Below, one piece after another: positions 6,184 to 31,757 of a DNA stretch of 64,000 nucleotides; within the stretch, counting starts at the first letter, position 1; each line of letters opens with the position of its first letter. The position numbers and the translations under genes were made by a program. The stretch covers positions 3,130 through 67,129 of the forward strand of contig PFVX01000079.1 in NCBI GenBank assembly GCA_002790835.1, written 5' to 3'. Below the pieces are notes generated by a model, which saw only the letters and a program-made list of their open reading frames with translations, ran no database searches and was not told the DNA's origin. Source of the stretch: a bacterium CG_4_9_14_3_um_filter_65_15. GTDB taxonomy: Bacteria; Krumholzibacteriota; Krumholzibacteriia; LZORAL124-64-63.

Positions 6184-7122
6184 ATGTCCGAGAGGATTTT
6201 CCATTCCGTGACCGAGTTGATCGGAGGAACCCCTCTGGTCCGCATCAACCACCTGACCGACGGGGCCGCCGACCTGGTGGTCAAACTCGAGTCGCTCAAT
6301 CCCATGTCCAGTGTCAAGGATCGCATCGGTCTGGCCATGATCGAGGCTGCGGAGAAGGACGGCCGGCTCAAACCGGGCGGCGAGATCATCGAACCGACGA
6401 GCGGAAATACGGGCATCGCCCTGGCCTTCATCGGCGCCGCCCGCGGTTACAAGGTGACCCTGGTCATGCCCGAAAGCATGTCCAAGGAGCGCCGGATCGT
6501 CATGCGGGCCCTGGGCGCCAACCTCGTGTTGACTCCTGCGTCCGAAGGCCTCAAGGGAACCATCGCCAAGGCGAAGCAGATGGCGGCCGAGAATCCGGAC
6601 GCCTTCATGCCCGACCAGTTCGCCAATCCCGCCAATCCCGAGGTCCACGCCCGGACCACCGCCGAGGAGATCTGGGCCGATACCGACGGGCGCGTGGATG
6701 TCTTTGTCGCCGGCATCGGCACCGGGGGCACCTTTACCGGGGTGGCGCGTCGGTTGCGCGAGCTCAACCCCGACCTGCTGGCGGTCGCCGTGGAGCCCGA
6801 GGGTTCGCCGGTGTTGTCGGGAGGGCAGCCGGGGCCGCACAAGATCCAGGGCATCGGGGGCGGCTTCGTGCCGGAAATCCTGGACACGAGCCTGATTTCG
6901 GAGATCATCAAGGTGGGCGACGAGGAGGCCATGGAGATGGCCAGGCGGGCGGCGCTCGAAGAAGGCCTGCTGGTGGGGATCAGTTCGGGAGCGGCCCTGG
7001 TGGCCGGTTGCCGGCTGGCCGCGCGGCCGGACATGGCCGCCAAGCGGATCGTGGCCATCATTCCGTCCTTCGGTGAACGCTACCTTTCGTCCGATCTGTT
7101 CTCCGTTTATCGAGACGAGTGA
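6184..7122 (+). CDS. cysK: Cysteine synthase A (O-acetylserine sulfhydrylase)
   Basis: 312 aa. The PLP lysine motif SVKDRIG, the [10 protein letters not shown] sequence and the GIGTGGT loop are present. A GGAGG ribosome-binding site is upstream. Confidence 0.92.
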
Positions 7123-7125
7123 TTC

Positions 7126-8052: not shown

Positions 8053-8282
8053 AAGACGGGTCGGTGCCCCGCGCCGGGTTGGGAAAAATGGGATGTCGAT
8101 CGTCGCGCCACGTGGAGGCGGCATTCCGCGAGAACCTGAAGTGGGGCATCCTGACTAAGGGGAACTATTTCGGGAGGCTGTTGTCAACCCTTTACCCCTG
8201 CTCGAATACCCCCTCCAAATGACCGGAATTTTCTCGGGTGAATGTTCGCACCTTGGGAAATCCTGCCTGAGAGTTGGTTATT

Positions 8283-10222: not shown

Positions 10223-10318
10223 CTGGAAGTAGGCCTCCGTCGGCCCTTTGCGAATAATCCGCAGCCGCGCAGCGGCGAGGACATTTCGCAAAGGGCCGAC
10301 GGAGGCCTACTTCCAGTG
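10223..10318. repeat. Perfect 33-bp inverted repeat (two arms separated by a 30-nt loop), predicted to form a long hairpin
   Basis: ACTGGAAGTAGGCCTCCGTCGGCCCTTTGCGAA ... TTCGCAAAGGGCCGACGGAGGCCTACTTCCAGT. The right arm overlaps the last codons and stop of gatD. Coordinates are +/-1. Confidence 0.9.
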
Positions 10319-13632: not shown

Positions 13633-13676
13633 GGTTACTTCCGCGCTCGGGTGGAGATGGCGTCCGGCCCAAGATA

Positions 13677-13692
13677 TTGACCCCGTGGTCAA
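13677..13692. promoter_or_regulatory. Candidate Rex operator (16-bp palindrome TTGACC-CCGT-GGTCAA) in the gatE / rex divergent region. A second partial TGTGAA half-site lies at about 13770-13790.
   Basis: Perfect 6-bp inverted arms with a 4-nt spacer, matching the TTGnnn-n4-nnnCAA architecture of Rex boxes. It lies 140 nt upstream of rex, next to a TTGACG-17-TATTCT promoter-like element (13732-13760). Confidence 0.4.
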
Positions 13693-13831
13693 AGCTCCAG
13701 GAATAGTTGGCTCTGCGGCGGAATTGCCATCTTGACGAGAGATTTCCCGTCGGATATTCTGAATGTGAATCTGGTAACATTCCCAGGCCCACTGCCAGGG
13801 CAATCTGTTTATACCTTAACGAGGTGATGTT

Positions 13832-17733: not shown

Positions 17734-18783
17734 ATGCACGGGATTGTCGGCTACGGCGCATATGTGCCGCGCTTCAGGATCAAGGCTGAGCAGATCGCCA
17801 ACCAGTGGGGCGCCGATGCGGACGCCTTCAAGAAGGGGCTGCTGCTGGAGGAGAAAACAGTCCCGGGGCCGGACGAGGACACCATCACCATCAGCGTGGC
17901 GGCGGCCCGGGATGCGGTGACCCGCGCGGGAATCGATCCCCAACTCATCGGAGCCTGCTACATCGGGTCCGAAAGCCATCCCTACGCGGTCAAGCCCTCG
18001 GGTACGGTGCTGATCGACGCCCTGGGGATCGGCCCCGATTGCCATGTGGCCGATTTCGAGTTCGCCTGCAAGGCGGGCACCGAGGCCATGTACGTGGCCT
18101 ACTCCCACGTCAAATCCGGCGAGATGCCCTACGCCCTGGGCATCGGGGCGGACACCAGCCAGGGCGCGCCCGGTGACGCCCTGGAGTACACCGCGTCGGC
18201 CGGTGGCTCGGCCTTCGTCATGGGCAGCGAGGGTGTGGTCGCCGAGATCCTCCACACCTACTCCTTCACTTCCGACACGCCGGATTTCTGGCGCCGAGAG
18301 GGGGAGTTCTATCCTCGGCACGCCGGACGTTTCACCGGGGAGCCCGCCTACTTCCATCACGTGCTCAGCTCGTGCCAAGGGATCCTCGACCGCAGCGGCA
18401 TGAAACCCGAGGACTTCCGCTACGCCGTTTTCCACATGCCCAACGGCAAGTTTCCCCTGCGGGCGGGCAAGACCATGGGCTTCACCAAGGAACAGCTCGA
18501 ACAAGGCTGGGTGGTGAACCTCATGGGCAACACCTACAGCGGTTCGTCGCCTACGGGCCTGGCGGCCTGCCTGGACGAGGCCAAGCCGGGCGATAACATC
18601 CTGATCACTTCCTTCGGCAGCGGCGCCGGTTCGGATTCCTTCATCCTGCGGGCGACCGATCGTCTGCCCGAGGTGCAGGGCCTGGCGCCCAAGGTGCGCG
18701 ACCAGCTGGCCGACCGCCGCATCCATCTGGATTACGGCAAGTACGTGGCATACCGCGGCAAGATCCGCATGAACGAGGTCTAG
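17734..18783 (+). CDS. Hydroxymethylglutaryl-CoA synthase (archaeal/UPF0219 type)
   Basis: 349 aa. [16 protein letters not shown]...[13 protein letters not shown] (catalytic Cys)...[10 protein letters not shown]...[11 protein letters not shown]. Confidence 0.85.
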
Positions 18784-18797
18784 AAAGGGGGCGGAAC

Positions 18798-19955
18798 ATG
18801 AGAGACGTAGCTGTCATCGGCACCGGCCTGACGAACTTCGGCGAACTCTGGGACATCCCCCTGCGCGACCTGTTCGCCATGGCGGCGGCCGACTGTCTGG
18901 AAGACGCGGGGGTGGAGCGCAGCCAGATCCAATCCGCGTACATCGGCTGCATGGCCAGCGGGATGTTCGTGGCCCAGGAACACCTGGCCTCCATCCTGAC
19001 CGATTACGCGGGCCTGGGGGGCATCGCCGCAACCCGGGTGGAATCGGCCTGCGCCTCCGGTGGTGCGGCTTTCCGCGCGGCCTACCTGGAGGTGGCCAGC
19101 GGGGCGAGCGATTTCGTGCTGGCAGGCGGGGTGGAGAAGATGAACGACGGCGCCGACGCCACCGTGTGTCTGGCCGCCGCCGCGGACCAGGAGTACGAGG
19201 TCTTCCACGGGGTGACCTTCCCCGGCCTGTACGCCATGATCGCCCGGGCGCACATGGCGAAATACGGCACCACGCCCGAACAGATGGCCGCCGTGGCGGT
19301 CAAGAACCACGCCAACGGGGCCCTCAACCCCAAGGCCCAGTTTCCGCGGGAGATCACCCTGCAAACGGTGCTGGGTGCGGTCCGGGTGGCAGAGCCGCTG
19401 GGATTGTTCGACTGCTCGCCCGTGACCGACGGTGGAGCCTGCGTGCTCCTGGCGCCGGTGGAGGTGGCCCGGAAGCTGGGCAAACCCATCGTGAAGATCA
19501 TCGGATCGGGGCATGCCACCGATGCCATCGCCCTGCACGATCGGGCCGATTATTCCACCATACCGGTGGTCGGTCTGGCGGCCCAGCGGGCCTTCGCCCA
19601 GGCGGGACTCGGAATCAAGGACATCGATTTCGCCGAGGTCCACGACTGCTTCACCATCGCCGAGATCGTTTGCAGCGAGGAGCTGGGCGCCTTCGAACGC
19701 GGGCAGGGCGGCCCGGCCGCCGCCGCGGGCGAGACGGCCCGGGACGGTTCGTTCCCCATCAACACGTCGGGCGGTCTGAAGAGCAAGGGCCATCCGGTGG
19801 GGGCCACGGGAATCGCGCAGATCTGCGAGATCCACAGCCAGCTCACGGGCCGGGCCGGAGGGCGCCAGCTGAAGAACCCGCGCCGTGGCCTGGCGCAGAA
19901 CATGGGCGGTTCCGGCGGCAGCTGCACCGTGCACATCCTGGAGGTGGAGTCATGA
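18798..19955 (+). CDS. Thiolase (acetyl-CoA C-acetyltransferase, SCP-x/archaeal type)
   Basis: 385 aa. [12 protein letters not shown] (active Cys) and the C-terminal [17 protein letters not shown]...[13 protein letters not shown]. Confidence 0.85.
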
Positions 19956-20347
19956 TCACCCCGCGCTATCATCGGGAAATCCCCCAGCGTTACCGGCTCG
20001 AGGCCGGCAAGTGCACGGCCTGCGGCGAGATCCATTTTCCTCCGCGCGCGGTGTGCCGCAAGTGCGCAGGCCGCGAAATGGAAACCATCGCCCTACCGCG
20101 GCGGGGCAAGGTCCTGACCCACACCACCGTGTGGATTCCGCCCGCACAGTTCGAAGAACAGAAGCCATACGTGAACGCAGTGGTTGAATTGGAAAACGGT
20201 GTCAAGTTGACCTGCATGGTTTGCGAGGCTCCGCCGGACGAGGTCACCATCGGCACCGAGGTCGAACTGGTCTTTCGCCGTCTGCAACACGGACCGGCCT
20301 GGGAAGTCATTCAGTACGGGTACAAGGCCCGGGTCATAAAGGCGTAA
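19952..20347 (+). CDS. DUF35 (Zn-ribbon plus OB-fold) acyl-CoA-associated scaffold protein
   Basis: 131 aa. C4 zinc ribbon [20 protein letters not shown] followed by an OB fold. The ATG overlaps the thiolase stop (ATGA). Confidence 0.8.
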
Positions 20348-20351
20348 TGGC

Positions 20352-21056
20352 ATGGGCAAGGGCAGGTACAAGGGCCGCCGCGCGGCGGCCTTTGTCTTCG
20401 ATCTGGACGGAACGCTGATCGATTCGGGTGAGGACATCGCCCGGTCGGCGAATTTCGTGCGCGGTCATTTCTCCCTGCCCGAACTGCCGTTGCCGACGGT
20501 GATCGGTTTCGTCGGGGACGGCGTGGAGATGCTGATGCGCCGCGCCCTGGGGCACGAAACCAAAAGCGGAAATCCCGATCTGCCCGTGGCCCCGGAGCGT
20601 CTGCAGGATGCCCTCTCCGTCTTTCGCGACCACTACGGTCGCCACCTGCTCGATCATACCCGCCTTTATCCGGGGGTCCTGGAGGTGCTCATGCGCTTCC
20701 GCGCCTTTCCCCTGCTGCTGGCCACCAACAAGCCACGCGAATTCACCGACCCGATCCTGGCCGGCCTGGGTATTCGCGACGCCTTTGCCCGCATCATCGC
20801 CGGCGACGAGACTCCCGCCCGCAAACCGGATCCCGAGCATTTGCGCCGGGTCCTGGAGGGGACCCCCGTGGCCTGCGAGGAAGTCGTGGTGGTGGGGGAC
20901 AGCCCCAACGACATCGCCGCCGCTCACGGCCTCGGCGCCGTGGCCGTTGGCTGCACCTATGGTCTGGTGGAGCCGGGCCGGATCCGGGTGGCCGGGCCGG
21001 ATCTGCTGATTGACAGCATCGGGGAGCTGTCGGCCCTATTCCCATCCAGAGCTTAA
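20352..21056 (+). CDS. HAD-superfamily hydrolase (phosphoglycolate phosphatase-like)
   Basis: Motif I FVFDLDGTLIDS, motif III K (ATNKP) and motif IV VVVGDSPNDIAAA. Confidence 0.8.
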   Translation: MGKGRYKGRRAAAFVFDLDGTLIDSGEDIARSANFVRGHFSLPELPLPTVIGFVGDGVEMLMRRALGHETKSGNPDLPVAPERLQDALSVFRDHYGRHLLDHTRLYPGVLEVLMRFRAFPLLLATNKPREFTDPILAGLGIRDAFARIIAGDETPARKPDPEHLRRVLEGTPVACEEVVVVGDSPNDIAAAHGLGAVAVGCTYGLVEPGRIRVAGPDLLIDSIGELSALFPSRA

Positions 21057-21225
21057 CTCATTGAAATTGTTATAAATAAACGATTTTGAATACGGGTTTA
21101 TCACTTATTGAAAAATAAATTCAATTTCATCTTTAATGTTACCCCATTAATCAGGTATGCTTTCTTACGCAATCGTGTCGGTGGGGAATTGGCGGTGGGG
21201 CTTCTCAACTTCCGGAGAGATTTCG
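21057..21225 (+). promoter_or_regulatory. AT-rich regulatory island (about 25% GC over about 110 nt) upstream of the desaturase-led lipid cluster
   Basis: ttgaaattgttataaataaacgattttgaatacgggtttatcacttattgaaaaataaattcaatttcatctttaatg. The GC content contrasts sharply with the flanking DNA (about 68% GC). It contains repeated ATTGAAA / AAATAAA words. A GGAGAG ribosome-binding site precedes the ATG at 21226. Confidence 0.5.
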
Positions 21226-22167
21226 ATGCGGAATGAGGCGGCCTATTTGGCGAATCCTGAGGGGTCTCGGCTCATCCGGGCGATTACCCATCTGGTGGTG
21301 TGGTTGCCCGCTGCGGGCGCCCTTGCCGGCTTGGGATTAGCCCTGACGCGGGGTGTCAGCGGCTACGCGTGGGTTTCCCTGTTGGTGATGTATGTGCTGA
21401 CGGTCACCGGTGTCGAACTGGGGCTGCACCGCTACGTTTCCCACCACGCCTTTCGGGCGCATCCGGTGGTGGAATTCTTCCTGGTGACATTCGGCTCCAT
21501 GGCCGCCCAGGGGGGACCGCTCTACTGGGCGTCGACCCATCGCCGCCATCACGCCTTTTCCGATCGCCCGGGCGACCCGCATTCCCCGCACCTCAGCGGT
21601 GGGGGGCCGCGCGGTTGCCTGACGGGAATGCTGCACGCGCACATGGGATGGTTGTTCCAGCCGGTGCATTCGGATTGGCTGCGCTACGTTCCCGACCTGA
21701 TCAAGGATTCGCGGTTGTTCACCCTGCACAGGTTGTATTTTCTCTGGATCGCGCTGGGCGTGTTGCTTCCGGCGGCCGTGGGTTTGATCTGGACACAAAG
21801 CTTGTATGGCGCGCTGGAAGGCCTCTTGTGGGGCGGATTGGGGAGGATCTTCCTGGTGCATCATGCCGTGTGGGGAGTCAATTCCCTGTGCCACGTGTTC
21901 GGCAGCCGACCCTTCGCCACCCGGGAACAAAGCCGCAACCTGGCCTGGATGGCCCTGCCTTCCCTGGGCGGAGCCTGGCACAACAACCACCACGCCTTTC
22001 CCCGCACGGCCGACAACCGGCTGCGCTGGTGGCAGTTCGATTTCTGCGGCATGGTCGCGCGGATCCTGGAGCGCACGGGACTGATCCGGGACGTCCACTA
22101 TGCCGATCCCGAATCCTTCGTTGCCGTCCCCTCGTCTCAAAAACCACCTGTGGCTATGGAGGGATGA
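21226..22167 (+). CDS. Membrane fatty-acid desaturase (stearoyl-CoA/acyl-lipid delta-9-type family), paralog 1
   Basis: Three histidine boxes HRYVSHH, HRRHH and HNNHH, with 4 transmembrane helices. The ORF track starts earlier (21157), but 21226 has the ribosome-binding site. Confidence 0.8.
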   Translation: MRNEAAYLANPEGSRLIRAITHLVVWLPAAGALAGLGLALTRGVSGYAWVSLLVMYVLTVTGVELGLHRYVSHHAFRAHPVVEFFLVTFGSMAAQGGPLYWASTHRRHHAFSDRPGDPHSPHLSGGGPRGCLTGMLHAHMGWLFQPVHSDWLRYVPDLIKDSRLFTLHRLYFLWIALGVLLPAAVGLIWTQSLYGALEGLLWGGLGRIFLVHHAVWGVNSLCHVFGSRPFATREQSRNLAWMALPSLGGAWHNNHHAFPRTADNRLRWWQFDFCGMVARILERTGLIRDVHYADPESFVAVPSSQKPPVAMEG

Positions 22168-22168
22168 C

Positions 22169-23164
22169 ATGACCAACCCCGACCTCGCCGTCCCCTTGGA
22201 CGACACCCCTTACACCGTTGCCGGCTCCGCCGAACGCCGCCGGTTGCGCCTCATTGCCGGCGCCGTCGTGGTGGTGCCGCTGCTCGGCACGCTCCTGGCG
22301 GTGTGGCTCGCGGTAACAGGGGGCCTCGGCGCCCTGGAGATCTGGTCCTTCGCCATCGGTTATGCGCTGACCCTGATGGGCATCACCGTGGGGTTCCACC
22401 GGCACTTCGCCCATCGTTCCTTCCTCGCCGGACCGGCGATGCGGGTGGTGCTGGCAACCCTGGGTTCCATGGCCGGGCAAGGCCCACTCATCTGGTGGGT
22501 GGCCACCCACCGGCGGCATCACCGCTTGAGCGATCGCGACGGCGATCCCCATTCCCCGCAACTCGCTTCCGGGCGGGGTCCGCTGCGGGCTCTCAAGGGA
22601 TTCTGGCAGGGGCACATCGCCTGGATGTTCTCCGACCGCATCAGCAACTGGAGCCTGTTTGCCCGCGACATGCTGGGGGACCGGCTGGTGGTGCGGATGC
22701 ATCAACTCTACTTCCCGATCTTCCTGCTGGGGATCATCCTGCCGGCGGCGATCGGCGGCCTCGTGACCGGTACCTGGAACGGGGTCCTGATGGGTTTCCT
22801 GTGGGGCGGACTGGTCAGGATCTTCGCCGTCGACCACGTGCTGTGGTGCGTGGGTTCGATCTGCCACATGATCGGTTTGCGCCCCTTCCGGGCGCGCACG
22901 CGCGATCACAGCACCAACAACCTGGCGGTGGCCTTTTTCGGTTTCGGCGAAGGCCTGCAGAACAACCATCACGCCTTTCCTCGCGACGCCTACCACGGTT
23001 TTCGCTGGTACGAGCCCGACCTGGGCGCCGGGACCATCCGGCTGCTGAGCCGGGTGGGACTGGTCTGGGACGTGGTGGCGACTCCGTCCCACGCCTGGAA
23101 ACTGGCCGAGGACCGCAACCGGGAAAATCCCGACCGGGCGGACCGCAGGCAGGGCGCGGCTTGA
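22169..23164 (+). CDS. Membrane fatty-acid desaturase, paralog 2 (tandem duplicate)
   Basis: HRHFAH, HRRHH and HNNHH boxes. The ATG lies 1 nt after the stop of paralog 1. The two proteins are clearly homologous but diverged. Confidence 0.8.
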   Translation: MTNPDLAVPLDDTPYTVAGSAERRRLRLIAGAVVVVPLLGTLLAVWLAVTGGLGALEIWSFAIGYALTLMGITVGFHRHFAHRSFLAGPAMRVVLATLGSMAGQGPLIWWVATHRRHHRLSDRDGDPHSPQLASGRGPLRALKGFWQGHIAWMFSDRISNWSLFARDMLGDRLVVRMHQLYFPIFLLGIILPAAIGGLVTGTWNGVLMGFLWGGLVRIFAVDHVLWCVGSICHMIGLRPFRARTRDHSTNNLAVAFFGFGEGLQNNHHAFPRDAYHGFRWYEPDLGAGTIRLLSRVGLVWDVVATPSHAWKLAEDRNRENPDRADRRQGAA

Positions 23165-23199
23165 GCGACACCTCCCAAGGACCGAATGGAGAATGACTG

Positions 23200-23538
23200 A
23201 TGTGGAAGAAAATGTTGACCCTGGTGGGCCTGAAGCCCCGGACATCGGACGTGGTCTTTGCGCGTCCCCCGGCCAATGAGCAGGAGGTCCGGGCGGGCCT
23301 GACGGCCGCGGTGGCCAAACGGGCCGGGCTGGATGCGGGCGGACTGGATCCCGAGCGCACCTTCGCCCAGCTGGGCTTCGATTCCCTGCAGGCCATGAAA
23401 TTCACCGGAAACCTTGAGAAGGATCTGGGTCTCGAGCTCGACCCCACCCTGATGTGGGATCATCCCACGGTCGCCAAGTTGACCGCCTACCTGACCGAGC
23501 GTCTGGACTTTGCCGCCGGGCGGAGGTCCATCGCGTGA
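23200..23538 (+). CDS. Acyl carrier protein-like (phosphopantetheine attachment DSL motif)
   Basis: LGFDSLQAMKF with flanking helices. The stop overlaps the fatty acyl-AMP ligase GTG start (GTGA). An alternative start at 23212 is possible. Confidence 0.65.
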   Translation: MWKKMLTLVGLKPRTSDVVFARPPANEQEVRAGLTAAVAKRAGLDAGGLDPERTFAQLGFDSLQAMKFTGNLEKDLGLELDPTLMWDHPTVAKLTAYLTERLDFAAGRRSIA

Positions 23539-25307
23539 AGGAACCTGCCGCCGTGTCCGGTCTTCAGGTCGGTGCCTCCGACCTGGGAGAGGTCCTGAGG
23601 CTGAGGTCGGAGGCCCACGGCGATCGATTGGCCTGCGCTTTCCTGCGCGACGGGGTGGACATCGCCGATTCCTGGACCTACGGCGAGTTGGACGCCCGGG
23701 CGCGCGCCATTGCCGCCCGGTTGCAGGGCCAGTTTGCTCCCGGGGACCGGCTCGTGCTGCTGTATCCGCCGGGGTTGGACTTCGTGGCGGCATTTTTCGG
23801 GTGTCTCTATGCCGGGATGATTGCGGTGCCGGCCTATCCTCCCCGTCGGGGCAAGGAGGACGTGCGAATCGTGGCCCTGGCGCATGATTGCCGTCCGGCG
23901 GGATTCCTGTCCGTGGCCGCGGGAGTGGAGGATCTCGAGGTTCTGCAGACGGCCCTGGGCGCGGGCGAGGGCGGGGTGGTGGCCACCGACGTCATCGGCG
24001 CGGACCATGCCGGAGATTTCAACCTTCGGGCCATCGACCCCGGCGCGGTGGCTTTTCTCCAGTACACGTCCGGCAGCACCGCCGCCCCCAAGGGGGTCAT
24101 GGTCACCCATGCCAACATGATGGCCAACGAATTCGCCATCCAGGCGGTGATGGAGCACGACGAGTCCCTGGTCGCCCTGGGTTGGCTGCCGGTCTTTCAC
24201 GACATGGGGCTGCTGGGCAACCTGCTGCAGCCCCTGTTTGTCGGCGGCAGCAGCATCCTGATTCCACCGTTGACCTTCCTCAAGCGTCCGCTCTGCTGGT
24301 TGGAAGCGGTGTCGAAATACGGGGCGACCTCCAGCGGGGGTCCCAACTTCGCCTTCGATCTCTGCGCCCGCCTGGCCGAGGCCCAGGGAGTGCCCAAGGG
24401 CTTGGATCTTTCCAGCTGGACGGTGGCCTACGTGGGAGCCGAACCCGTCCGCCCCGACACCCTGCGCCGCTTCGCTGCGGCCTTCAAGGGGGCCGGCTTC
24501 CGGTCGGAGGCCTACTTTCCCTGCTACGGCATGGCCGAAAGCACCCTGATCGCCACCGGCGGACCCAAGGCCCGCCCACCGGTACTTCCCCGCATCAGCA
24601 CCCGGGCCCTGCTCGAGGGGCGGGGTGAGACGCGACGGCTGCCGGGGCCGGGTTCGCGCCGGATCACCGGCTGCGGACACGCCGTTCCGCAGCACACCGT
24701 TCTGGTGGTCGACCCGGAAACCCGCGAGCCCAGCGCCGACGGGTCGGTGGGAGAAATCTGGATATCCGGCCCCAGTGTCGCGATCGGCTACTACCGCAAC
24801 CCGGAGGCCACCGAGGAGATCTTTGCCGTGCGGACAACCGACGGCCGGGGGCCTTTCCTGCGCACCGGCGACCTGGGCTTTGCCCGGGACGGGGAGTTTT
24901 TCATCACCGGTCGCTTGAAGGATATGCTGGTCATCCGGGGGCAGAACCACTACCCCAGCGACATCGAGTTGACCGTCGAGGGGGCGCACCCGGGTCTGCA
25001 GCCCAATGCGAGCGCCGCGTTTTCCACCGAGGTCGACGGCGCAGAAAGGCTCGTGGTCGCGGTGGAGATCTCCCGGATGCTGTATCAGCAGCTGGCCCGC
25101 GGCGGCGACGGCTCCGGGGAATTGCCCCTCGATGAGTTGGTCGCGGCCGTCCGCGAAAAAGTCATGGAGATCCACGAAATTCCCGTCCATCAGCTGGCGA
25201 TCCTCAAGCCGGGCGGTGTGCCCCGCACATCCAGCGGCAAGATCAGGCGCGCCGAGTGCCGGCGCCTGCACGGCGAACGAAAGCTGACCGCCCTTGCTGT
25301 CGCCTGA
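23535..25307 (+). CDS. Fatty acyl-AMP ligase (FAAL, FadD32-like adenylating enzyme)
   Basis: FLQYTSGSTAAPKGVMVTHANMMAN (FAAL-type A3 motif), YGMAESTL, the ISGPSVAIGYY...GDLGF...GRLKDMLVIRGQNHYP motifs and the C-terminal SSGKIRR. Confidence 0.8.
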   Translation: MKEPAAVSGLQVGASDLGEVLRLRSEAHGDRLACAFLRDGVDIADSWTYGELDARARAIAARLQGQFAPGDRLVLLYPPGLDFVAAFFGCLYAGMIAVPAYPPRRGKEDVRIVALAHDCRPAGFLSVAAGVEDLEVLQTALGAGEGGVVATDVIGADHAGDFNLRAIDPGAVAFLQYTSGSTAAPKGVMVTHANMMANEFAIQAVMEHDESLVALGWLPVFHDMGLLGNLLQPLFVGGSSILIPPLTFLKRPLCWLEAVSKYGATSSGGPNFAFDLCARLAEAQGVPKGLDLSSWTVAYVGAEPVRPDTLRRFAAAFKGAGFRSEAYFPCYGMAESTLIATGGPKARPPVLPRISTRALLEGRGETRRLPGPGSRRITGCGHAVPQHTVLVVDPETREPSADGSVGEIWISGPSVAIGYYRNPEATEEIFAVRTTDGRGPFLRTGDLGFARDGEFFITGRLKDMLVIRGQNHYPSDIELTVEGAHPGLQPNASAAFSTEVDGAERLVVAVEISRMLYQQLARGGDGSGELPLDELVAAVREKVMEIHEIPVHQLAILKPGGVPRTSSGKIRRAECRRLHGERKLTALAVA

Positions 25308-26436
25308 AGCAGCCCCTGTTCCTCCCGCAACGGGCAGCTACGCCGTGCGGCGCTTTCGGCCCGCCGACCAGCCCGCCCTGATCGCCTTGCTGGGTGACGT
25401 GTGGGGCGAAGATTTCGCCCGCCTCATGGAGCGGATCTGGAGCTGGAAGTACGACCGCAACCCCCACAATCCTCCGGGCGGGCACAACTCCATGGTCTTG
25501 ACCTGGGCGGAAGAGCCGGTGGGCTTTCTGGGCATGATGTCGGCCAACCTGAAGGTGGCCGACCAGGTCGTGCCCCTGGCCTGGGGATCGGAACTGGCCG
25601 TGCATCCCCGGCATCGGGGCGAAGGCTACCGGGTTATCGTGAACATCGGCACCGACGCGGAAAAGCTCATCGCGGGAACGGCCCGCACGCGGGATCTGGC
25701 CGGACTGCCCCTGGGCTTCGGCGCCTTCGATATCACCCGCATGATCAGCCACAAGCTGATCCTGCGGCCACGGCGATTCCTGGCAGCCAAGGCCGGAGGG
25801 GGGTGGGCGGCGGCGCTGGGAGCTCCGCTGGTGGGTTGGGCGGTCGCCTTGGCGCAGAAGCTCGGGCCCGGACGCCGGACTCCGGCCGTGGAATTGGAGG
25901 AAGTCGAGGACTTCGGACCGGAGTTCGATATCCTGTGGGAGAATGTGGCGCCGGGTTACCCGCTGATCCCGGTGCGGGACCGGGCCTTCCTGCAGTGGCG
26001 TTTCCGGGAGTGCCCGATTCGCGACCACACCGTGCTGGCGGTCCGCAGACTGGGAGTCCTGCACGGTTACGTCGTCTACAGGTTGGAAGGTGAACCGGGA
26101 TTGCGCCGGGCCTACATCGTGGATATGCTGGCCGGCCGGGACGATGCCGCTACCTGGGACCTGCTGCTGGGGGGTGTCGAGGCTCATTGCCGCGCAGCCG
26201 GCGCGGACATCCTGACCTTTACCATGTCCGCATCGTGGGATCTGGGCACTTCCCTGCGCCGGCGCGGATACCTTTTCCGTTCGCCACGGGCCTGGATCAC
26301 GGGCCACACCGGTTGCAAACCGGAGTATGCCCATCTGCGAGAGGGCCTGGAGCACAGCACAGGCCTGGTGATGACCCGGGCCGACACGGACCTGGACTTC
26401 AACTACTGGGGGTTGCGCGATGAAGGCCGGGAGTAA
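25294..26436 (+). CDS. GNAT-fold (FemAB / Acetyltransf_6-like, two-lobed) N-acyltransferase, putative
   Basis: 380 aa. Two GNAT-like halves (RFRPADQPALIALLGDVWGEDFA...; ...FLQWRFRE...AYIVDMLA). The TTG start is uncertain. It overlaps both neighbouring genes. Confidence 0.45.
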   Translation: MLSPEAAPVPPATGSYAVRRFRPADQPALIALLGDVWGEDFARLMERIWSWKYDRNPHNPPGGHNSMVLTWAEEPVGFLGMMSANLKVADQVVPLAWGSELAVHPRHRGEGYRVIVNIGTDAEKLIAGTARTRDLAGLPLGFGAFDITRMISHKLILRPRRFLAAKAGGGWAAALGAPLVGWAVALAQKLGPGRRTPAVELEEVEDFGPEFDILWENVAPGYPLIPVRDRAFLQWRFRECPIRDHTVLAVRRLGVLHGYVVYRLEGEPGLRRAYIVDMLAGRDDAATWDLLLGGVEAHCRAAGADILTFTMSASWDLGTSLRRRGYLFRSPRAWITGHTGCKPEYAHLREGLEHSTGLVMTRADTDLDFNYWGLRDEGRE

Positions 26437-27304
26437 CCCAACGCCTCGGCCGGTGGCCTTCGTCCACATCCCCAAGGCGGCCGGCACCACACTGCACGGG
26501 ATCCTTGCGCGCCAGTATCCGGCGGCTCACACGCTGATCCTGGACGTTCAGCGCCCCGAGTACCGCCGGAATCTGGACGGCATCACCGAGCAGCAATGGG
26601 CGTCGGCCCTCTGTCTGCGGGGCCACATGCCCTTCGGCATGCACCGCCGAACGGAACGGGAATTCGCCTACGTCACCGTGCTTCGCGATCCGGTCACCCG
26701 CATCATTTCCAAGTACCGCAACCTGCAGCGCCGGCCCGAGCGGGCGCGGGAGATGGCCTTCCCGCCCGATCGCCTGGAAACGCTGGAGGACTTCATCGCC
26801 CTGCAGGGCGAACGCAACGCCCTGAATTTCCAGACGCGAATGCTGGCGGGTTGGGTCGAACCCGACGCCCCCCTGTTTCCCTATGCGCAGCCCCTGCCGG
26901 ATGAAGCGCTGGATCTGGCCAAGGCCAACATCGAAAAGCACTTCGCCGTGGTGGGGCTGCAGGAACGCTTCGCCGAATCGGTGGCCCTGATGCAGCTTGC
27001 GCTGGGGTGGCGGCAAGTGGGGATTCCGCGGCGCAACGCCGCCCCCGCTGCGGCGGACCGGTACGATTTGGCCGTGCACGATGAGATCCGGAAACTCAAC
27101 CATCTGGACCAGGCCCTGGTGGCTTATGCGGCCAAGCGGCTGGATGAGCAGATCGCCGCCGAGGGGGAGGATTTTGAGCGCGCCTTGCAGGGGATCAAGA
27201 GCCGGAGTCGGGTCGCGGACAACCTGCAGAACTTGGTCCGCGGCTCGGGTCTGAGGCGCGTCGGTTCCCTGGTCAGGAAATGGCGCGTCAGAACTTCCGG
27301 GTGA
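26420..27304 (+). CDS. Sulfotransferase (carbohydrate/Stf-like family, PAPS-dependent)
   Basis: The 5'-PSB motif FVHIPKAAGTT and the 3'-PB motif TVLRDPVTRIISKYR are present. Confidence 0.6.
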   Translation: MKAGSNPTPRPVAFVHIPKAAGTTLHGILARQYPAAHTLILDVQRPEYRRNLDGITEQQWASALCLRGHMPFGMHRRTEREFAYVTVLRDPVTRIISKYRNLQRRPERAREMAFPPDRLETLEDFIALQGERNALNFQTRMLAGWVEPDAPLFPYAQPLPDEALDLAKANIEKHFAVVGLQERFAESVALMQLALGWRQVGIPRRNAAPAAADRYDLAVHDEIRKLNHLDQALVAYAAKRLDEQIAAEGEDFERALQGIKSRSRVADNLQNLVRGSGLRRVGSLVRKWRVRTSG

Positions 27305-28493
27305 TCGTCACGACGGAATAACCTTCCCGGTTTCCCATCATGAGACCCTCGCCGGCCAGGCCGGGATTCAACGCTGCGGTGTCGTTGTAGGTCAGGTCGA
27401 CCGTCAAGGGTCCATGCCGCCAGGCCAGTCCGAGCGACAAGGGAGTGGCCACCGAAATGTTGAGAATCGATTCCTTGTCGTCCAGCCCCTCGCCGGTGGC
27501 CGCGAAAGCCTTGCGCTCGATTTCTTCGTGGTGGCGCAGGTATTGGGCCGCCATTCTCACGGTCAAGCATTCCATCAGGTCCGATTCCAACCCCAAACGT
27601 CCCCGGATCTGGTGGAAGTCCTGCGCGCTCGCGTCCCAGACAGCTTCCTGGGTGCTTCCTTCCCGCAGCGCCCAGTTCTGACTTCCTCGACGATACTCGC
27701 CGCTGATGATGATCAAGGCGCCATCGGGCCTGTAGAGGTTCACGCCCAACCCGAGGGTTGTCACGGCGGCATCCTGATCCGCCGGGTCCCCCAGGAGATC
27801 CGAGTAGTACCCTCCCTGGCGGCGGGTCCGGGAGAGCACGGGCACCAGGGTCAAGTCCTCGCCGAGTCGTCCGCGCAAGCGGAGCCTCAAGCCGTATGAC
27901 TTCCAGGTATCGGAGGATACGCCGCCGGCGGTGTGAGGGAAATCGGTCATGGTGTTGATGATCTCGCCGGCCAGTTCGGCCTCCCAGACATCGTTCAACC
28001 GCCGACCGAGACCGAGACCGTAGGTATGGAAGTACTGGCCGTCGACGACGATGTCGCCGCCGGAGACGGCGCGGAATTTCCCGAAGGTGGTGAAGCGGCC
28101 CGCCACGCCCAGGCGCCAGGCACCGAGGCGACGGCTGTAGAGCAGGGCGAAGGCCCCGTCATCGTCGGCCTTGTCCAGGTGGTCCTGGAAATAGAAGGCG
28201 ACCGTGCCGGCATTGCCGGTGCCGTTCAACCGCACATGGGCCCCGCCACCGTGCCCCAGCCAGCCCATGGCGCTGAGAGCCCGGTCCTTGTTGTGCACGA
28301 CATCCCCTGGCTCCAGGACGAGCCGATCGGGGTAGCGCTCCAGGCTGGCGTACCACTGCAGGACGTTTGCGGAGTCCAGGAAGTAGGCGCCGTCCCCGCC
28401 GAGGGCCACCGAGCGCGCGGTACCGGCGTCGGCGGAAGGGGCGCCCATCAGGATGAAACCGCAAAGGAGCAGGAAGAATCGGGTTTGGCGCAT
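27288..28493 (-). CDS. Outer-membrane beta-barrel protein (porin-like), signal-peptide bearing
   Basis: Signal peptide MRQTRFFLLLCGFILMGAPSADA. Alternating amphipathic strands (YGLRLRLRGRLG...). The C-terminal residue is aromatic (...TITRKF). Its 3' end overlaps the sulfotransferase 3' end. Confidence 0.55.
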   Translation of the reverse strand: MRQTRFFLLLCGFILMGAPSADAGTARSVALGGDGAYFLDSANVLQWYASLERYPDRLVLEPGDVVHNKDRALSAMGWLGHGGGAHVRLNGTGNAGTVAFYFQDHLDKADDDGAFALLYSRRLGAWRLGVAGRFTTFGKFRAVSGGDIVVDGQYFHTYGLGLGRRLNDVWEAELAGEIINTMTDFPHTAGGVSSDTWKSYGLRLRLRGRLGEDLTLVPVLSRTRRQGGYYSDLLGDPADQDAAVTTLGLGVNLYRPDGALIIISGEYRRGSQNWALREGSTQEAVWDASAQDFHQIRGRLGLESDLMECLTVRMAAQYLRHHEEIERKAFAATGEGLDDKESILNISVATPLSLGLAWRHGPLTVDLTYNDTAALNPGLAGEGLMMGNREGYSVVTITRKF

Positions 28494-28665
28494 CGTAGGG
28501 TTCCGTATCCGGGGTCTTGGTTAAAGGTTCGATTGGCGCTGATCCTGATGGTTTGCCGATACCGCGTCAATGGCAAAACCGGAGTCGGCTGGGTTTGGCT
28601 ACGGTCGAGGGTGTGTGGTAGACTGCCGGTGATGCGACAGAATCCGTCCACCCCGGAGAACACCC

Positions 28666-30429
28666 ATGCCTGCTTCCGACCTGCCTCTCCATCCCTGGCC
28701 GTTGTCCCGCCTCCTGGAACGCATCGAGCGGGAATGGGGCCTGCGGCGACAGATTTTCGGGCTCACGGCCCGGCGGTTTTTCCCCGTTCCCGGGGACGTG
28801 GACCTGATCTGGACGGGTGACGGATTGACGGCGGCCACTCCCGTGGGACCGGCGGCCGGCCCGCACACCCAGCTGGCGCAGAACATCGCGCTGGGCTGGT
28901 TGGTCGGCGGGCGCAGCTTCGAGCTGAAGACCGTCCAGGTGCTGGACGAGCTCGAAATTCCGCGGCCCTGTATCGACATGGAAGCGGTGGGCTACAACGT
29001 GGAGTGGAGCCAGGAACTTCCCTTGCCCCTCTCGTTGCGGGAGTACGTGAAGGCCTGGGTCCTGCTGGCGGTGCTGCGGCGGTGGGAACCCGTGCGCGAG
29101 GTGCTGGGCAACCCCGGCGAACATCTCTTCGAACTGTCGGTGGGGTACGACCTGCCCGGAATCCAGACCCCGGTCATGGACGCCTTCATCCACGGTCTGA
29201 CCCACGCCGAGGGGATGATCGATGAGCTGCGCGGGGAGATCGGCGGCGCTTTCGGCGGGCTGCGCGATATTCCGATTCCCGGCCGCATCGTGCAAACGGC
29301 CACCCTGAGCACCTTCCACGGTTGTCCGAGCGATCAGATCGAAGGCATCGTGCGTCACCTGATGAGCGCCCACGACCTCGACGTCACCGTCAAGCTGAAT
29401 CCCACCTTGCTGGGCCGCGAGACCGTGGCCGGGATCCTTCATGATCACCTCGGCTTCAGGGATGTCGACCCGGCGCCGGAGGCTTTCGCCGCCGATCTCC
29501 AGTTTGCGCAGGCCGTGGCGATGATCGAACGGCTGCGTGGCTTTGCCGCGGATTGCGGCCGCCGGTTCGGGATCAAACTGACCAACACCCTGGTGGTGAA
29601 GAACGCGCGCGGTGTCATGCCCGGAGAGACGATGTACCTCAGCGGGCGGCCGCTGCACATGCTGGCGATCACCCTTCTGGACCAGTTGCACCGGGCGTTG
29701 CCGGGGGTGCTGCGCGTGGGGCCGCAGGACGATGCGCCCGTGTCGGTGGCATTCAGCGCCGGAGTGGACAAGGACAACCTGATCGAAACGGTGGGCCTGG
29801 GGTTGCGCCCGGTGACCATCTGCAGCGACCTGTTGCGGCCCGGAGGTTACGGACGCATGGCCCAGGGGCTGCGCAAGCTGGCGCGGCACATGGCCGCCGA
29901 GGGTCATGCCGATCTTTCGGCCCTGCAGGGTGGTGCTCATGAACGGGCGCTGGCGGCGGGGCATCCCGACGCCGTGGCCGCCTACGCCGCGGCCCTGGCT
30001 GACCCGGCCACGGCGGCGCGTTACGGCGCGGAGGGCGATCTGCGGCCACCGCGCCAGGTCGATCACGTGCTGGAGATGTTCGATTGTGTGGCATGCACGA
30101 ACTGCGTGACCGTCTGCCCCAACGACGCCTTCCTGACCGTGCCCACGCCCGCCGGCGGCGATCTTTCCGCCCGGGAGCAGTACCTGGTGCTGGCGGAACT
30201 GTGCAACGACTGCGGGAACTGCACGACCTTCTGCCCGGAAATCGGGTCGCCGCAAGTGATCAAGCCGCGGCTCTACACCCAGCCGCAGGTGTGGCAGGCG
30301 CGGGGCCGCGATGGTTTCCTGTTGGAACCGGGCGCAAACGGGCCGACGGTGCGAGGAGAAGGCGAGGCCGCGGCCCGGCTGCAAAAGATGCTGGCCGGCG
30401 ATGCCCTGCCGCTGTCCCTGGACGAATAA
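28666..30429 (+). CDS. Dihydroorotate/dihydropyrimidine-dehydrogenase-family FMN oxidoreductase with a C-terminal 2x[4Fe-4S] domain
   Basis: The PyrD-like N-terminus PVGPAAGPHTQLAQNIALGW...RPCIDMEAVGYNVEW and the C-terminal CVACTNCVTVCP...CNDCGNCTTFCP are present. A GGAGA ribosome-binding site is upstream. Confidence 0.5.
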   Translation: MPASDLPLHPWPLSRLLERIEREWGLRRQIFGLTARRFFPVPGDVDLIWTGDGLTAATPVGPAAGPHTQLAQNIALGWLVGGRSFELKTVQVLDELEIPRPCIDMEAVGYNVEWSQELPLPLSLREYVKAWVLLAVLRRWEPVREVLGNPGEHLFELSVGYDLPGIQTPVMDAFIHGLTHAEGMIDELRGEIGGAFGGLRDIPIPGRIVQTATLSTFHGCPSDQIEGIVRHLMSAHDLDVTVKLNPTLLGRETVAGILHDHLGFRDVDPAPEAFAADLQFAQAVAMIERLRGFAADCGRRFGIKLTNTLVVKNARGVMPGETMYLSGRPLHMLAITLLDQLHRALPGVLRVGPQDDAPVSVAFSAGVDKDNLIETVGLGLRPVTICSDLLRPGGYGRMAQGLRKLARHMAAEGHADLSALQGGAHERALAAGHPDAVAAYAAALADPATAARYGAEGDLRPPRQVDHVLEMFDCVACTNCVTVCPNDAFLTVPTPAGGDLSAREQYLVLAELCNDCGNCTTFCPEIGSPQVIKPRLYTQPQVWQARGRDGFLLEPGANGPTVRGEGEAAARLQKMLAGDALPLSLDE

Positions 30430-30459
30430 TCGATCCAGCGCTTGGGGCCGTTTCCGGCT

Positions 30460-30945
30460 TCAGGCGTCATCCGGCAGTGAACGCAAACAGCTCGCCAGGG
30501 CCTGGTGCACCGAGGCGATGGTGTAGGGGTCGTCGGGGTCGTCCGGACGGCCCGGTCGGTCGAAATGGGGTTTTTCGTCATAGTCACGGCCCCAGCGCGC
30601 ATCCACCACGCGGACCAGTTCGGCCAGGGATTCTTCCTGCGCCAGGATGGGTTCCAGGAACGCCCGCAACAGGGCCGATGGTGCGCCGAAATGGCGGGCC
30701 ACCAGGGGCTGGTGCGAATCCAGCCGGGACAGGATCGTCCGCTGCAGGCTACCTTCGGGGTCGCGCAGGCACGTGTCCAGGAGCTCACGGACGGCGAAGA
30801 TGGTCTGGTCGTGGGCCGCGACGGGCGAGGCGCCCTTGAGGACGTCCCCGGCGGCGCGCAACAGGGCTTCGTCGGGGCTTGCCTCGCGTCCGCGCAGGAT
30901 TTCCCGGTCGTCCGGAAGCTTTGGTGTGTCCTTGTCCTTTTGCAT
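30460..30945 (-). CDS. Hypothetical protein (acidic, helical)
   Basis: 161-aa ORF with codon usage like its neighbours. No motif was recognised. Confidence 0.4.
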   Translation of the reverse strand: MQKDKDTPKLPDDREILRGREASPDEALLRAAGDVLKGASPVAAHDQTIFAVRELLDTCLRDPEGSLQRTILSRLDSHQPLVARHFGAPSALLRAFLEPILAQEESLAELVRVVDARWGRDYDEKPHFDRPGRPDDPDDPYTIASVHQALASCLRSLPDDA

Positions 30946-31010
30946 GGTGTTAGCATACCAGAATCATCCCGGGAATTCCCGGGATGTCTGCTGGAACACG
31001 CGGAGAATCG

Positions 31011-31757
31011 ATGAACCAAGCGAATGCCGAACCCCTCGCCAACCTGGCCGCAGGAAAGCCGGCCGACAGCGGCCAGTTCCTTCTGGGGCGCCGCCTCCGC
31101 CTGGTCGAGCCCCTGCTGGGCGAAGCCAGGGAGCACCTGGTGGATTTCGGCTGCGGCAACGGCGCCCAGACCCGGTTGTTCGCCCCTCTTTTTGCACGCA
31201 CCACGGGGGTGGACGTGGATCCGGTGTTTCTGGCGGAATTTCAGGCCCAGATTGTTGCCGACGGCGTGCAGGATCGCACCCGGGCCTGTGAACTCGTCGA
31301 CGGGCGCATTCCCCTGGATGACGCCTGCGCCGACGTGGTGACTTCGTTCACCGTGCTCGAGCACGTTCCCGACGAAGCGGCCGCCCTGGCGGAGATGCGG
31401 CGGGTGCTGCGCCCGGGAGGCCGGATGATCATCAGTGTTCCGAATCGCTGGTGGCTGTTCGAAACCCACGGCGCCGATCTTCCCCTGTTGCCCTGGAACC
31501 GGGTGCCCCTGGTCAGCTGGTGGCCCAAGCGTCTGCATGATCGCTGGGCTCGGGCGCGGATCTACCGACGGCGGGAAATCGTTGCGATGGTGTCCGCGGC
31601 GGGATTCACCCTCACCGGATCATGGCGTGCGACCGCACCCATGGACATGATCAAGTGGGCACCCTTGCGCCGGGTGGTGCGCGGAGTGTTCTTCGGACGC
31701 GACCGTGCCGTCCTTCCTGTTCTGGCCACCGAGGTCCTGGTCTGTGCTGAAAGGTAA
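31011..31757 (+). CDS. Class I SAM-dependent methyltransferase
   Basis: Motif I VDFGCGNG and motif post-II LRPGGRMIISVPN. A GGAGA ribosome-binding site precedes 31011. The ORF track starts at 30984. Confidence 0.75.
   Translation: MNQANAEPLANLAAGKPADSGQFLLGRRLRLVEPLLGEAREHLVDFGCGNGAQTRLFAPLFARTTGVDVDPVFLAEFQAQIVADGVQDRTRACELVDGRIPLDDACADVVTSFTVLEHVPDEAAALAEMRRVLRPGGRMIISVPNRWWLFETHGADLPLLPWNRVPLVSWWPKRLHDRWARARIYRRREIVAMVSAAGFTLTGSWRATAPMDMIKWAPLRRVVRGVFFGRDRAVLPVLATEVLVCAER

Follow-up and report, generated by a model that had tools for sequence, protein, structure and literature searches.

We describe here a compact six-gene operon in a 64,000-nt stretch of Krumholzibacteriota DNA, the whole of which we call the window; the region studied spans positions 21057-28493. 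An open reading frame (ORF) listing, combined with Pfam and NCBIfam profile searches, places six plus-strand genes within about 6.1 kb (21226-27304), encoding two desaturases, one acyl carrier protein (ACP), a fatty acyl-AMP ligase (FAAL), a tandem GNAT acyltransferase (dGNAT) and a sulfotransferase (ST). We propose, giving the proposal about an even chance of being right, that the operon makes a sulfated amphiphile with an oxidatively tailored fatty-acyl chain, probably carried as an N-acyl group on an amino sugar. The features of the region are as follows.

21057-21156, no strand: AT-rich intergenic island, 25% GC, a putative promoter or regulatory region.
21226-22167, plus strand: Des1, H-type membrane desaturase of the stearoyl-CoA desaturase (SCD) di-iron type (PF00487, E 2.8e-14).
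22169-23164, plus strand: Des2, Q-type membrane SCD-type desaturase (PF00487, E 2.3e-16).
23200-23538, plus strand: ACP, 112 aa (PF00550, E 1.4e-17).
23535-25307, plus strand: FAAL, 590 aa, GTG start (PF00501, E 2.8e-66).
25294-26436, plus strand: dGNAT, two-lobed tandem GNAT acyltransferase (weak PF13527 match, 22.9 bits against a cut-off of 25).
26420-27304, plus strand: ST, sulfotransferase of the 3'-phosphoadenosine-5'-phosphosulfate (PAPS) type, 294 aa (PF03567, 29.5 bits against a cut-off of 22).
27288-28493, minus strand: putative outer-membrane ORF, 401 aa; signal peptide present, Phe at the C-terminus, weak PopA-porin N-terminal match.

Reading the sequence at the junctions, we find a 1-nt spacer between Des1 and Des2, a GTGA shared by the ACP stop and the FAAL start, overlaps of 14 nt between the FAAL and dGNAT genes and of 17 nt between the dGNAT and ST genes, and a convergent 17-nt overlap of the ST gene with the minus-strand ORF 27288-28493. 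Profiles and junction reads agree with the original prediction, which had described six co-directional, tightly packed genes of these enzyme classes. The sharp AT-rich island that it placed ahead of the operon is likewise present: the island compares with a window mean of 65.6% GC, and just one further spot in the 64 kb falls below 35% GC in 100-nt stretches. That second spot, at about 49631, has a FadB-like gene on the minus strand (47192-49564) to one side and 49790-50401, on the plus strand, to the other; it is probably the promoter region of a divergent pair. The region upstream of the operon is also AT-rich in three related loci (L001, L005 and L006), with short motifs in common. We infer a promoter role for the island; a sigma-70 scan of 20800-28800 found no consensus site. 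Des1 starts at ATG 21226, following a GGAGAG ribosome-binding site that is kept in L005 and L006, and an alternative start at ATG 21157 was rejected since it falls within a conserved non-coding motif.

How firmly is this arrangement conserved? A GNAT-family scan of species-representative genomes yielded L005, L006 and L007 (= L001), which are metagenome-assembled genomes (MAGs) of Candidatus Krumholzibacteriia or of an unclassified bacterium, and the window proteins were compared to the relatives' loci by tblastn. The six genes stand in identical order and at the identical chromosomal site in three other Candidatus Krumholzibacteriia assemblies (four loci: L001/L007, L005, L006), and a metagenome contig, L023, has the six-gene arrangement again; the desaturase-ACP-FAAL-GNAT-sulfotransferase synteny to which the original prediction had pointed as a check is thus found. 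Across these loci the cluster proteins are 51-78% identical and the flank proteins 57-94% identical (61-94% in the closest relative, L001/L007). The relatives have in common an upstream flank of HMG-CoA-synthase-like, thiolase, DUF35 and HAD phosphatase genes and a downstream flank of a YgfK-like Fe-S protein, a methyltransferase and an S9 peptidase. Because order and site are kept in the relatives and because GC content is even over the cluster and its flanks, we read the operon as a vertically kept lineage trait and not as a recent island. The conserved order in L001/L007, L005, L006 and L023 also indicates that the arrangement is not due to chance.

In the acyl-activating part of the operon the PF00550 and PF00501 profiles, named beforehand as checks, match the ACP and the FAAL respectively. 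The ACP has its phosphopantetheine-attachment serine in GFDSL (residues 59-63), and tblastn finds its gene kept in all relatives. For the FAAL the best NCBIfam matches are FAAL families, and the strongest PDB matches, down to 3t5a, are all FAALs (7r7f at 478 bits, 3kxw, FadD23, FadD32, FadD28 and 3pbk), with an E value of 9.6e-95 against the FadD23 structure 8hd4. Aligned to 7r7f, in a comparison made against FAALs, the protein spans the FAAL-specific insertion region with gaps of one or two residues; the spacing from YGMAE to GEIWISG is 70 residues.

For the two desaturases the original prediction envisaged a tandem pair introducing one or two double bonds. That they are PF00487 desaturases is borne out; the pair is no generic tandem duplication, being an H/Q pair that, together with the ACP, is homologous to the pair of a polyyne-type cassette. 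By motifs and hydrophobic segments both proteins are SCD-type di-iron enzymes with four transmembrane segments, and Des2 matches mouse SCD1 (4ymk) with an E value of 1.4e-23. Des1 and Des2 are 43% identical, and it is the third His box that sets them apart: the boxes of Des1 are HRYVSH, HRRHH and HNNHH, the last in the context GGAWHNNHHAFP (H-type), and those of Des2 are HRHFAH, HRRHH and QNNHH, the last in the context GEGLQNNHHAFP (Q-type). The string QNNHHAFP recurs in 106 of the 120 best Des2 homologs. In all seven contexts in which both genes were read (the window, L001, L017, L019, L021, L022 and L104) the order is H-type, Q-type, ACP; in L005 and L006, where the His boxes were not read, tblastn places two desaturases and then an ACP. 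The locus L104, on a Streptomyces goshikiensis plasmid and called polyyne-type by its gene composition, not by experiment, encodes a FAAL, DesA (H-type), DesB (Q-type), an ACP, a third desaturase, an alpha/beta hydrolase, a rubredoxin and a P450. Des1 is 46-48% identical to its DesA and Des2 48% identical to its DesB, with an identical Q-type motif. Since the H/Q pair and ACP are homologous and syntenic to those of this polyyne-type cassette, the chemistry may go beyond one or two double bonds, and a triple bond is possible.

In L021 (5040-9692) the H/Q desaturase pair and ACP are set between a 5,458-aa polyketide synthase (PKS) and a stand-alone ketosynthase (KS), so that the Des-Des-ACP unit acts as a portable module. 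A further alkyne-type locus, L103, on the Burkholderia gladioli BSR3 plasmid bgla_4p (119546-138469), has a desaturase, ACP, methyltransferase, desaturase, amidohydrolase, FAAL, PaaI thioesterase and alpha/beta hydrolase; both of its desaturases are H-type, flippase and polysaccharide-export genes adjoin it, and insertion sequences flank it.

Might the operon then simply make an alkyne- or polyyne-type metabolite, an antibiotic or signal, in which dGNAT joins the chain to a small amine as an amide cap, the sulfate aids solubility, gives self-protection or acts as a leaving group, and no glycan takes part? The operational definition of an alkyne cassette is a co-located FAAL, desaturase and ACP (PMC8406139), and all three are encoded by neighbouring genes here. 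JamB itself clusters with proteobacterial stearoyl-CoA desaturases (PMC2593844). Of the seven genes that Mullins et al. (PMC8406139) define as the polyyne core, and that are found in L104, the operon has four: FAAL, ACP and the JamB-related desaturase pair. The gene order and degree of identity shared with the polyyne-type cassette, the occurrence of the Des-Des-ACP unit within the L021 PKS cluster and the compactness of an operon that lacks glycan genes all speak for such a metabolite. However, a third (delta-12-like) desaturase, an alpha/beta-hydrolase thioesterase and a rubredoxin are found neither in 21057-28493 nor in the scanned flanks (17734-21056 and 27288-31757), nor among the further window genes scanned, a scan that took in part of the ORFs of the 64 kb. 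Because these three defining genes (PMC8406139, PMC9828172) are missing, the operon is, as judged from its gene content, not a polyyne-cassette member. In the cay and pgn systems, constructs without the desaturase and thioesterase genes, and single active-site point mutants of a desaturase, reportedly disrupt polyyne formation (PMC9828172). The conserved site among housekeeping genes and the normal GC content, moreover, look like a lineage trait and less like a mobile biosynthetic cluster, and the glycan context of the relatives, described below, also tells against an alkyne-type metabolite. We consider it improbable that the operon's product is of this kind.

We now turn to the enzyme on which the proposed N-acyl product depends. 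The acyltransferase had been described as FemAB-like, with aminoacyl-tRNA as a possible donor, and neither part is borne out. While Acetyltransf_9 (PF13527) is matched by 28 of 32 dGNAT family members, with the window protein falling just below the cut-off, none of the 32 matches a FemAB model and none has an SCP2-type domain; there is one weak match to N-myristoyltransferase (NMT). An AlphaFold2 (AF2) model of the window protein has two GNAT lobes, and the R/Q-x-x-G-x-G/A pyrophosphate-binding motif of the N-lobe is present as RHRGEG (R-x-x-G-x-G, residues 106-111), with R108 and G111 nearly invariant; these two features are those of Eis/NMT-like tandem GNATs. The family also has motifs of its own, WxWKY(D/E)xNP, FLxWRF and a C-terminal ADTDLD. 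A phmmer search against PDB sequences finds no relative, and a fold search with the model gives Eis- and NMT-like N-acyltransferases as nearest (10-17% identity), followed by the amino-sugar N-acetyltransferases 5kf1, MshD, 4zm6 and WecD. From sequence and model, dGNAT is best treated as a separate family sharing the Eis/NMT fold. Because the acyltransferase is Eis/NMT-like and not FemAB-like, nothing suggests that it uses aminoacyl-tRNA. A word-indexed search returned 10 close homologs and gave the impression of a tiny family, which an exhaustive profile search overturned by recovering 608 representatives at E<=1e-30 and 7,786 at E<=1e-10. The tandem-GNAT release domain thus appears, from these searches, to be a large uncharacterised family.

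The evidence that dGNAT acts on carrier-bound chains comes from its fusions. In several proteins the whole unit of about 350 aa is a C-terminal domain that follows straight after carrier-protein domains. P0274 (4,122 aa) reads FAAL-ACP-KS-AT-KR-ACP-KS-AT-KR-ACP-dGNAT, where AT and KR are PKS acyltransferase and ketoreductase domains; P0275 reads A-PCP-dGNAT (adenylation domain, peptidyl carrier protein); P0268 and P0306 read KR-ACP-dGNAT; and P0267 and P0315 read ACP-dGNAT, on contigs of about 2.5 kb whose neighbouring genes are not readable. The PKSs of L015/L016 and L020 terminate in a dGNAT domain as well. As separate genes, dGNAT is linked to FAAL, ACP and desaturases in three gene orders, those of the window, of L017 (Des-Des-ACP-dGNAT-FAAL in L017/L018) and of L022. 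The operon contains no thioesterase or other release enzyme besides dGNAT. Because dGNAT is fused after ACP and PCP domains, and because the operon has no thioesterase, we conclude that dGNAT most likely off-loads the acyl chain from the ACP to a nucleophile, most likely an amine. These architectures strongly support a dependence of dGNAT on carrier proteins. A precedent for a GNAT-fold release domain is the C-terminal domain of Ebony (6dym). The overall logic envisaged from the start, which ran from FAAL to ACP to desaturase to acyltransferase to sulfotransferase, is backed by the synteny and by the fusions of GNAT to carrier proteins.

The sulfotransferase, predicted as a PF03567 protein, indeed scores above the curated cut-off for that family, and has both a 5'-PSB motif (PKAAGTT, residues 18-24) and a 3'-PB motif (RDPVTRIIS, residues 89-97), as a PAPS-dependent enzyme of the Sulfotransfer_2/Gal-3-O-sulfotransferase-like kind should; the Gal-3-O-sulfotransferase model PF06990 scores 23.5 bits. 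No transmembrane segment was found in the protein. Its 332 detected homologs are named 'sulfotransferase family 2', and characterised members of the family are carbohydrate-directed. A sulfotransferase of the same family adjoins a dGNAT gene or domain in three architectures: the window-type operon; a polysaccharide cluster in L002/L013/L014, where the order is ST1/3, dGNAT, ST2; and L015/L016, where two ST2 genes and one ST1 gene converge on the dGNAT end of a 5,501-aa FAAL-PKS.

What, then, is the acceptor? In L004, whose dGNAT is 60% identical to that of the window, the operon is followed by a protein related to glycoside hydrolases (GH-like), MurJ, Sulfotransfer_3 and glycosyltransferases of the GT2 and GT1 families. 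In L002/L013 (39% identical) the dGNAT-ST pair stands amid Bac_transf, Wza, MurJ, Polysacc_deac_1, Wzy and GT2 genes. In L022 two GT4 genes, a sugar oxidoreductase, another glycosyltransferase and Wzx precede Des-Des-ACP-(Polysacc_deac_1)-dGNAT-FAAL, and in L020 a PKS-dGNAT lies between MurJ, Wzm/Wzt and a methyltransferase-GT2-GT4 protein. More widely, 38 metagenomic dGNAT loci of at least 5 kb contain Wzt (9 loci), GT4 (9), deacetylase (6, one of them confirmed by Pfam) and GT2 (5), counts that, coming from BLAST with few seeds, are lower bounds and are raw, without background normalisation. A distant dGNAT member on plasmid p2 of Azospirillum brasilense is found in a RefSeq-annotated exopolysaccharide cluster, two genes from a polysaccharide deacetylase and near Wzc, Wzy, Wzx and GT2. 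This proximity of deacetylase and dGNAT genes suggests that an N-acetylhexosamine may be de-N-acetylated and its free amine then re-acylated, following the logic of NodB and NodA; in the FAAL-linked subfamily we infer that the amine would receive a long, tailored acyl chain. Because the relatives of both the GNAT and the ST recur among polysaccharide genes, we favour a glycan acceptor, and these gene contexts make an amino sugar or glycan a likelier acceptor than an amino acid. As a separate observation, the giant FAAL-PKSs of L015/L016 and L020, which have KR-only modules and end in dGNAT, adjoin MurJ, Wzy or Wzm/Wzt, glycosyltransferases and up to four sulfotransferases, and these clusters may make polyketide-tailed sulfated glycolipids.

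The original prediction foresaw a different product, a sulfated mono- or di-unsaturated N-acyl amino acid or O-acyl lipid, made with the FemAB-like enzyme, possibly from aminoacyl-tRNA, and exported by the barrel. Known GNAT-fold enzymes, FeeM and those of the OlsB type, do use acyl-ACP to form N-acyl amino acids, the set of FAAL, ACP, desaturases, GNAT and ST is compatible with such a lipid, and no sugar-handling genes were found in the window; a small-amine or amino-acid acceptor is possible for so compact an operon. Nevertheless a product other than the N-acyl amino acid is better supported: the GNAT-ST pair, like the GNAT family at large, occurs in polysaccharide and glycolipid clusters, often by a polysaccharide deacetylase, the ST family is carbohydrate-directed where characterised, and the barrel gene, as we show below, is missing from all syntenic relatives. 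A lipid of the kind first foreseen is, in our estimate, hardly probable.

One may also ask whether the operon carries a single pathway at all. Two unrelated functions could share one transcript, with Des-Des-ACP-FAAL recycling or remodelling membrane fatty acids and dGNAT-ST acetylating (from acetyl-CoA) and sulfating a polysaccharide. The MAG GCA_054043445.1, which holds L002/L013, has its Des-Des-ACP-FAAL genes alone on another contig (L019), so that the two modules are at separate loci; most dGNATs of the wider family are in polysaccharide clusters that lack a FAAL (found in 2 of the 38 loci), the Azospirillum member among them; and the dGNAT family matches acetyltransferase Pfam models. 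A polysaccharide sulfotransferase in an operon of its own had been named in advance as a result that would undo the prediction; we see one in this distant relative only, and the same MAG also has Des-Des-ACP-FAAL elsewhere, a splitting into modules that argues for a glyco-conjugate product over unrelated genes. Two separate functions are made less plausible by the 14-nt FAAL/dGNAT and 17-nt dGNAT/ST overlaps, by the tie of dGNAT to FAAL, ACP and desaturases in the three gene orders (window type, L017 and L022), and by the fusion of dGNAT to carrier proteins in many proteins. If dGNAT were excluded from the pathway, moreover, the acyl-ACP would have no release enzyme in the cluster. We regard a pair of unrelated functions as improbable.

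Several points nevertheless weigh against a sulfated N-acyl glycolipid with an oxidatively tailored chain. No glycosyltransferase, deacetylase or flippase was found by tblastn and Pfam in the operon or in the surrounding 64 kb: a tblastn search of the window with MurJ, Wzy, GT2, GT1, deacetylase and ST1/3 of L002, L004 and L015 gave as its sole match the GH-like protein at 8274-10019, and Pfam assigned housekeeping functions and no glycan genes to 20 further window genes. The L017-type cluster likewise lacks glycosyltransferase, deacetylase and flippase. The sugar acceptor is an extrapolation from relatives sharing 29-60% identity and from the family at large, and GNAT acceptors shift easily in evolution. 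L002 and L019 are linked through a single MAG, in which a binning error is possible. As to the chain, an SCD-type sequence cannot tell a desaturase from an acetylenase, whereas a cassette of the JamABC/TtuABC type would call for a bifunctional desaturase/acetylenase forming a terminal alkyne on the ACP-bound chain; the S. goshikiensis cassette used for comparison was assigned from composition, not by experiment; and the operon encodes no rubredoxin, ferredoxin or cytochrome b5 that could serve as electron donor. More generally, all of the chemistry is deduced from sequence, and the product from genes alone.

With these points in mind, we suggest the following route to a sulfated N-acyl glycolipid. 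The FAAL, whose family is clear and whose chemistry we take from that family, would adenylate a free fatty acid and load it onto the dedicated ACP. The H-box and Q-box di-iron desaturases, by homology, would act on the ACP-tethered chain to introduce unsaturation, perhaps a triple bond, and would need O2 and an electron donor encoded outside the operon. The R-x-x-G-x-G motif of the dGNAT N-lobe would bind the phosphopantetheine arm, and the acyl group would be moved to an amine, presumably of the sugar acceptor, in the C-lobe, freeing the ACP. The acceptor would most likely be an amino sugar, which could be free, linked to a nucleotide or a lipid, or a residue in a glycan encoded elsewhere in the genome. 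Before or after the dGNAT step, the cytoplasmic PAPS sulfotransferase would sulfate a hydroxyl of the acceptor or product. Such a route would end in a sulfated N-acyl glycolipid or in a lipidated sulfated glycan, and the product's flipping and export would be provided from elsewhere in the genome; MurJ- and Wzx-type flippases are adjacent in relatives. A bolder form of this proposal, which we think unlikely as it stands, is a sulfated glycolipid with a triple-bonded acyl chain, attached by a member of a large, carrier-protein-dependent tandem-GNAT release family whose domain also ends the FAAL-PKS megasynthases of glycan-export clusters; the operon would then represent a widespread, unrecognised lipidation route for (sulfated) glycans in uncultured phyla.

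Parts of this scheme resemble known systems. The JamABC and TtuABC alkyne cassettes and the cay, pgn and ccn polyyne cassettes likewise use a stand-alone FAAL, a dedicated ACP and SCD-type membrane desaturases on an ACP-tethered chain. Unlike them, the operon has no third desaturase, thioesterase or rubredoxin and no downstream PKS or nonribosomal peptide synthetase (NRPS) as in Jam, it would release its chain by a tandem GNAT, followed by sulfation, and its host phylum, Krumholzibacteriota, is not among the phyla given in PMC8406139. From Eis and NMT, dGNAT differs in its own motifs, in a donor that we take to be acyl-ACP rather than acyl-CoA, and in serving also as a terminal domain of PKS and NRPS proteins.

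The tailoring of Nod factors offers a second comparison. There a dedicated ACP carries a special unsaturated acyl chain (NodE/NodF), NodA transfers it to the amine of GlcNAc deacetylated by NodB, and NodH performs PAPS-dependent sulfation. The likeness is functional, and relatives of the window dGNAT recur beside or near Polysacc_deac_1 and GT2 genes; however, the window has no NodA, NodB or NodC homologue and no NodA Pfam match, and O2-dependent desaturases take the place of the NodE ketosynthase.

A third likeness is to sulfolipid-1 of Mycobacterium tuberculosis, in which a FAAL-activated acyl chain on a carrier is passed by acyltransferases to a sugar that a PAPS sulfotransferase modifies (PMC3318749, PMC9989471). 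The logic of that pathway (FadD23, Pks2, PapA2/PapA1, Stf0, Chp1, MmpL8) is similar, but the operon shares only the FAAL with it and would be a functional analogue. Pfam and NCBIfam give no condensation-like (PapA), Stf0-like, PKS or MmpL match among the operon proteins: a tandem GNAT stands in place of PapA, a Sulfotransfer_2/Gal3ST-like enzyme in place of a Stf0-like one, the window has no PKS (relatives L015 and L020 fuse a PKS to dGNAT), and the chain would be desaturated, not methyl-branched. By analogy, the operon would work like an alkyne-type cassette joined to acylation and sulfation of the sulfolipid-1 or Nod-factor kind.

Two other candidates were set aside, in agreement with the original prediction. 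A capnine-type sulfonolipid route would call for a pyridoxal-phosphate-dependent (PLP) acyltransferase, which the operon lacks, and the cysK and cysE genes at 6184-8052 are ordinary cysteine-synthesis genes; an olefin-synthase (OLS)/CurM sulfotransferase-thioesterase system does not fit a free-standing 294-aa ST in an operon devoid of KS, AT, KR and thioesterase domains. The claim that the combination is undescribed also stands so far as our full-text literature search goes, which found no description of the gene combination, of a tandem GNAT with an ACP, or of Krumholzibacteriota lipid genes, and no report on the lipid chemistry of the phylum. To our knowledge Krumholzibacteriota have no cultured representative.

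If our proposal is correct, the tandem GNAT would join thioesterases, reductases and condensation domains as a carrier-protein-dependent domain for chain release and N-acylation, and the JamB-related H/Q pair with its ACP would be used outside polyyne antibiotics, feeding a cell-surface-type sulfated lipid in Krumholzibacteriota. A natural alkyne-tagged sulfated amphiphile would be of interest to bio-orthogonal chemistry, whereas a product that is merely a diene N-acyl compound would be a new yet unsurprising variant of FAAL-initiated lipid tailoring. At six genes and about 6.1 kb, the system is small enough to be amenable to heterologous expression.

We return finally to the neighbourhood of the operon. 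The outer-membrane barrel gene next door had been put forward as a partner or exporter of the system, a claim that the relatives contradict: the slot between the ST and the YgfK-like gene, where the window has its putative outer-membrane ORF, is empty in L001 and is occupied in L005 and L006 by an M3 oligoendopeptidase and small ORFs. By tblastn the ORF at 27288-28493 has no homologue in L001-L012, it belongs to no Pfam family, and BLASTP shows it to be dissimilar to the ORFs of no known function beside the L002, L004 and L015 clusters. A single-sequence AF2 model of it is unusable (pLDDT 34.5), which leaves the barrel fold putative. Because the gene is lacking in all syntenic relatives, no dedicated outer-membrane export partner is indicated, and judging from this distribution the ORF cannot be a dedicated partner of the operon.

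Beyond the slot, a YgfK-N-terminal-like protein of 587 aa with two 4Fe-4S motifs (28666-30429, plus strand) is kept downstream in all Krumholzibacteriia relatives. It was rejected as a cluster member, since the variable slot intervenes and it is absent beside the L004, L017 and L022 clusters; it could conceivably pass electrons to the desaturases, though nothing supports this. Upstream, a trio of HMG-CoA-synthase-like, thiolase and DUF35 (zf-ChsH2/OB) genes at 17734-20347 (plus strand), in the style of the archaeal thiolase-HMGCS complex, is 82-94% conserved in the related Krumholzibacteriia loci. Farther away, a GatD-like gene (Asparaginase and GatD_N domains; 10307-11698, minus strand) overlaps a gene with a GatB/GatE catalytic domain (GatB_N; 11695-13803, minus strand). 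The pair, in which the GatB_N gene is possibly GatE-like, resembles the archaeal type of Glu-tRNA(Gln) amidotransferase; in a bacterial genome this would be unusual if confirmed. Lastly, the GH-like protein at 8274-10019 (plus strand) is a secreted GH42-like protein with a Por_Secre_tail of the type IX secretion system (T9SS); in the window it is a lone gene between cysE and gatD, and its homologs (49-67% identity) lie within the sulfated-polysaccharide/dGNAT clusters of L002, L004 and L015.

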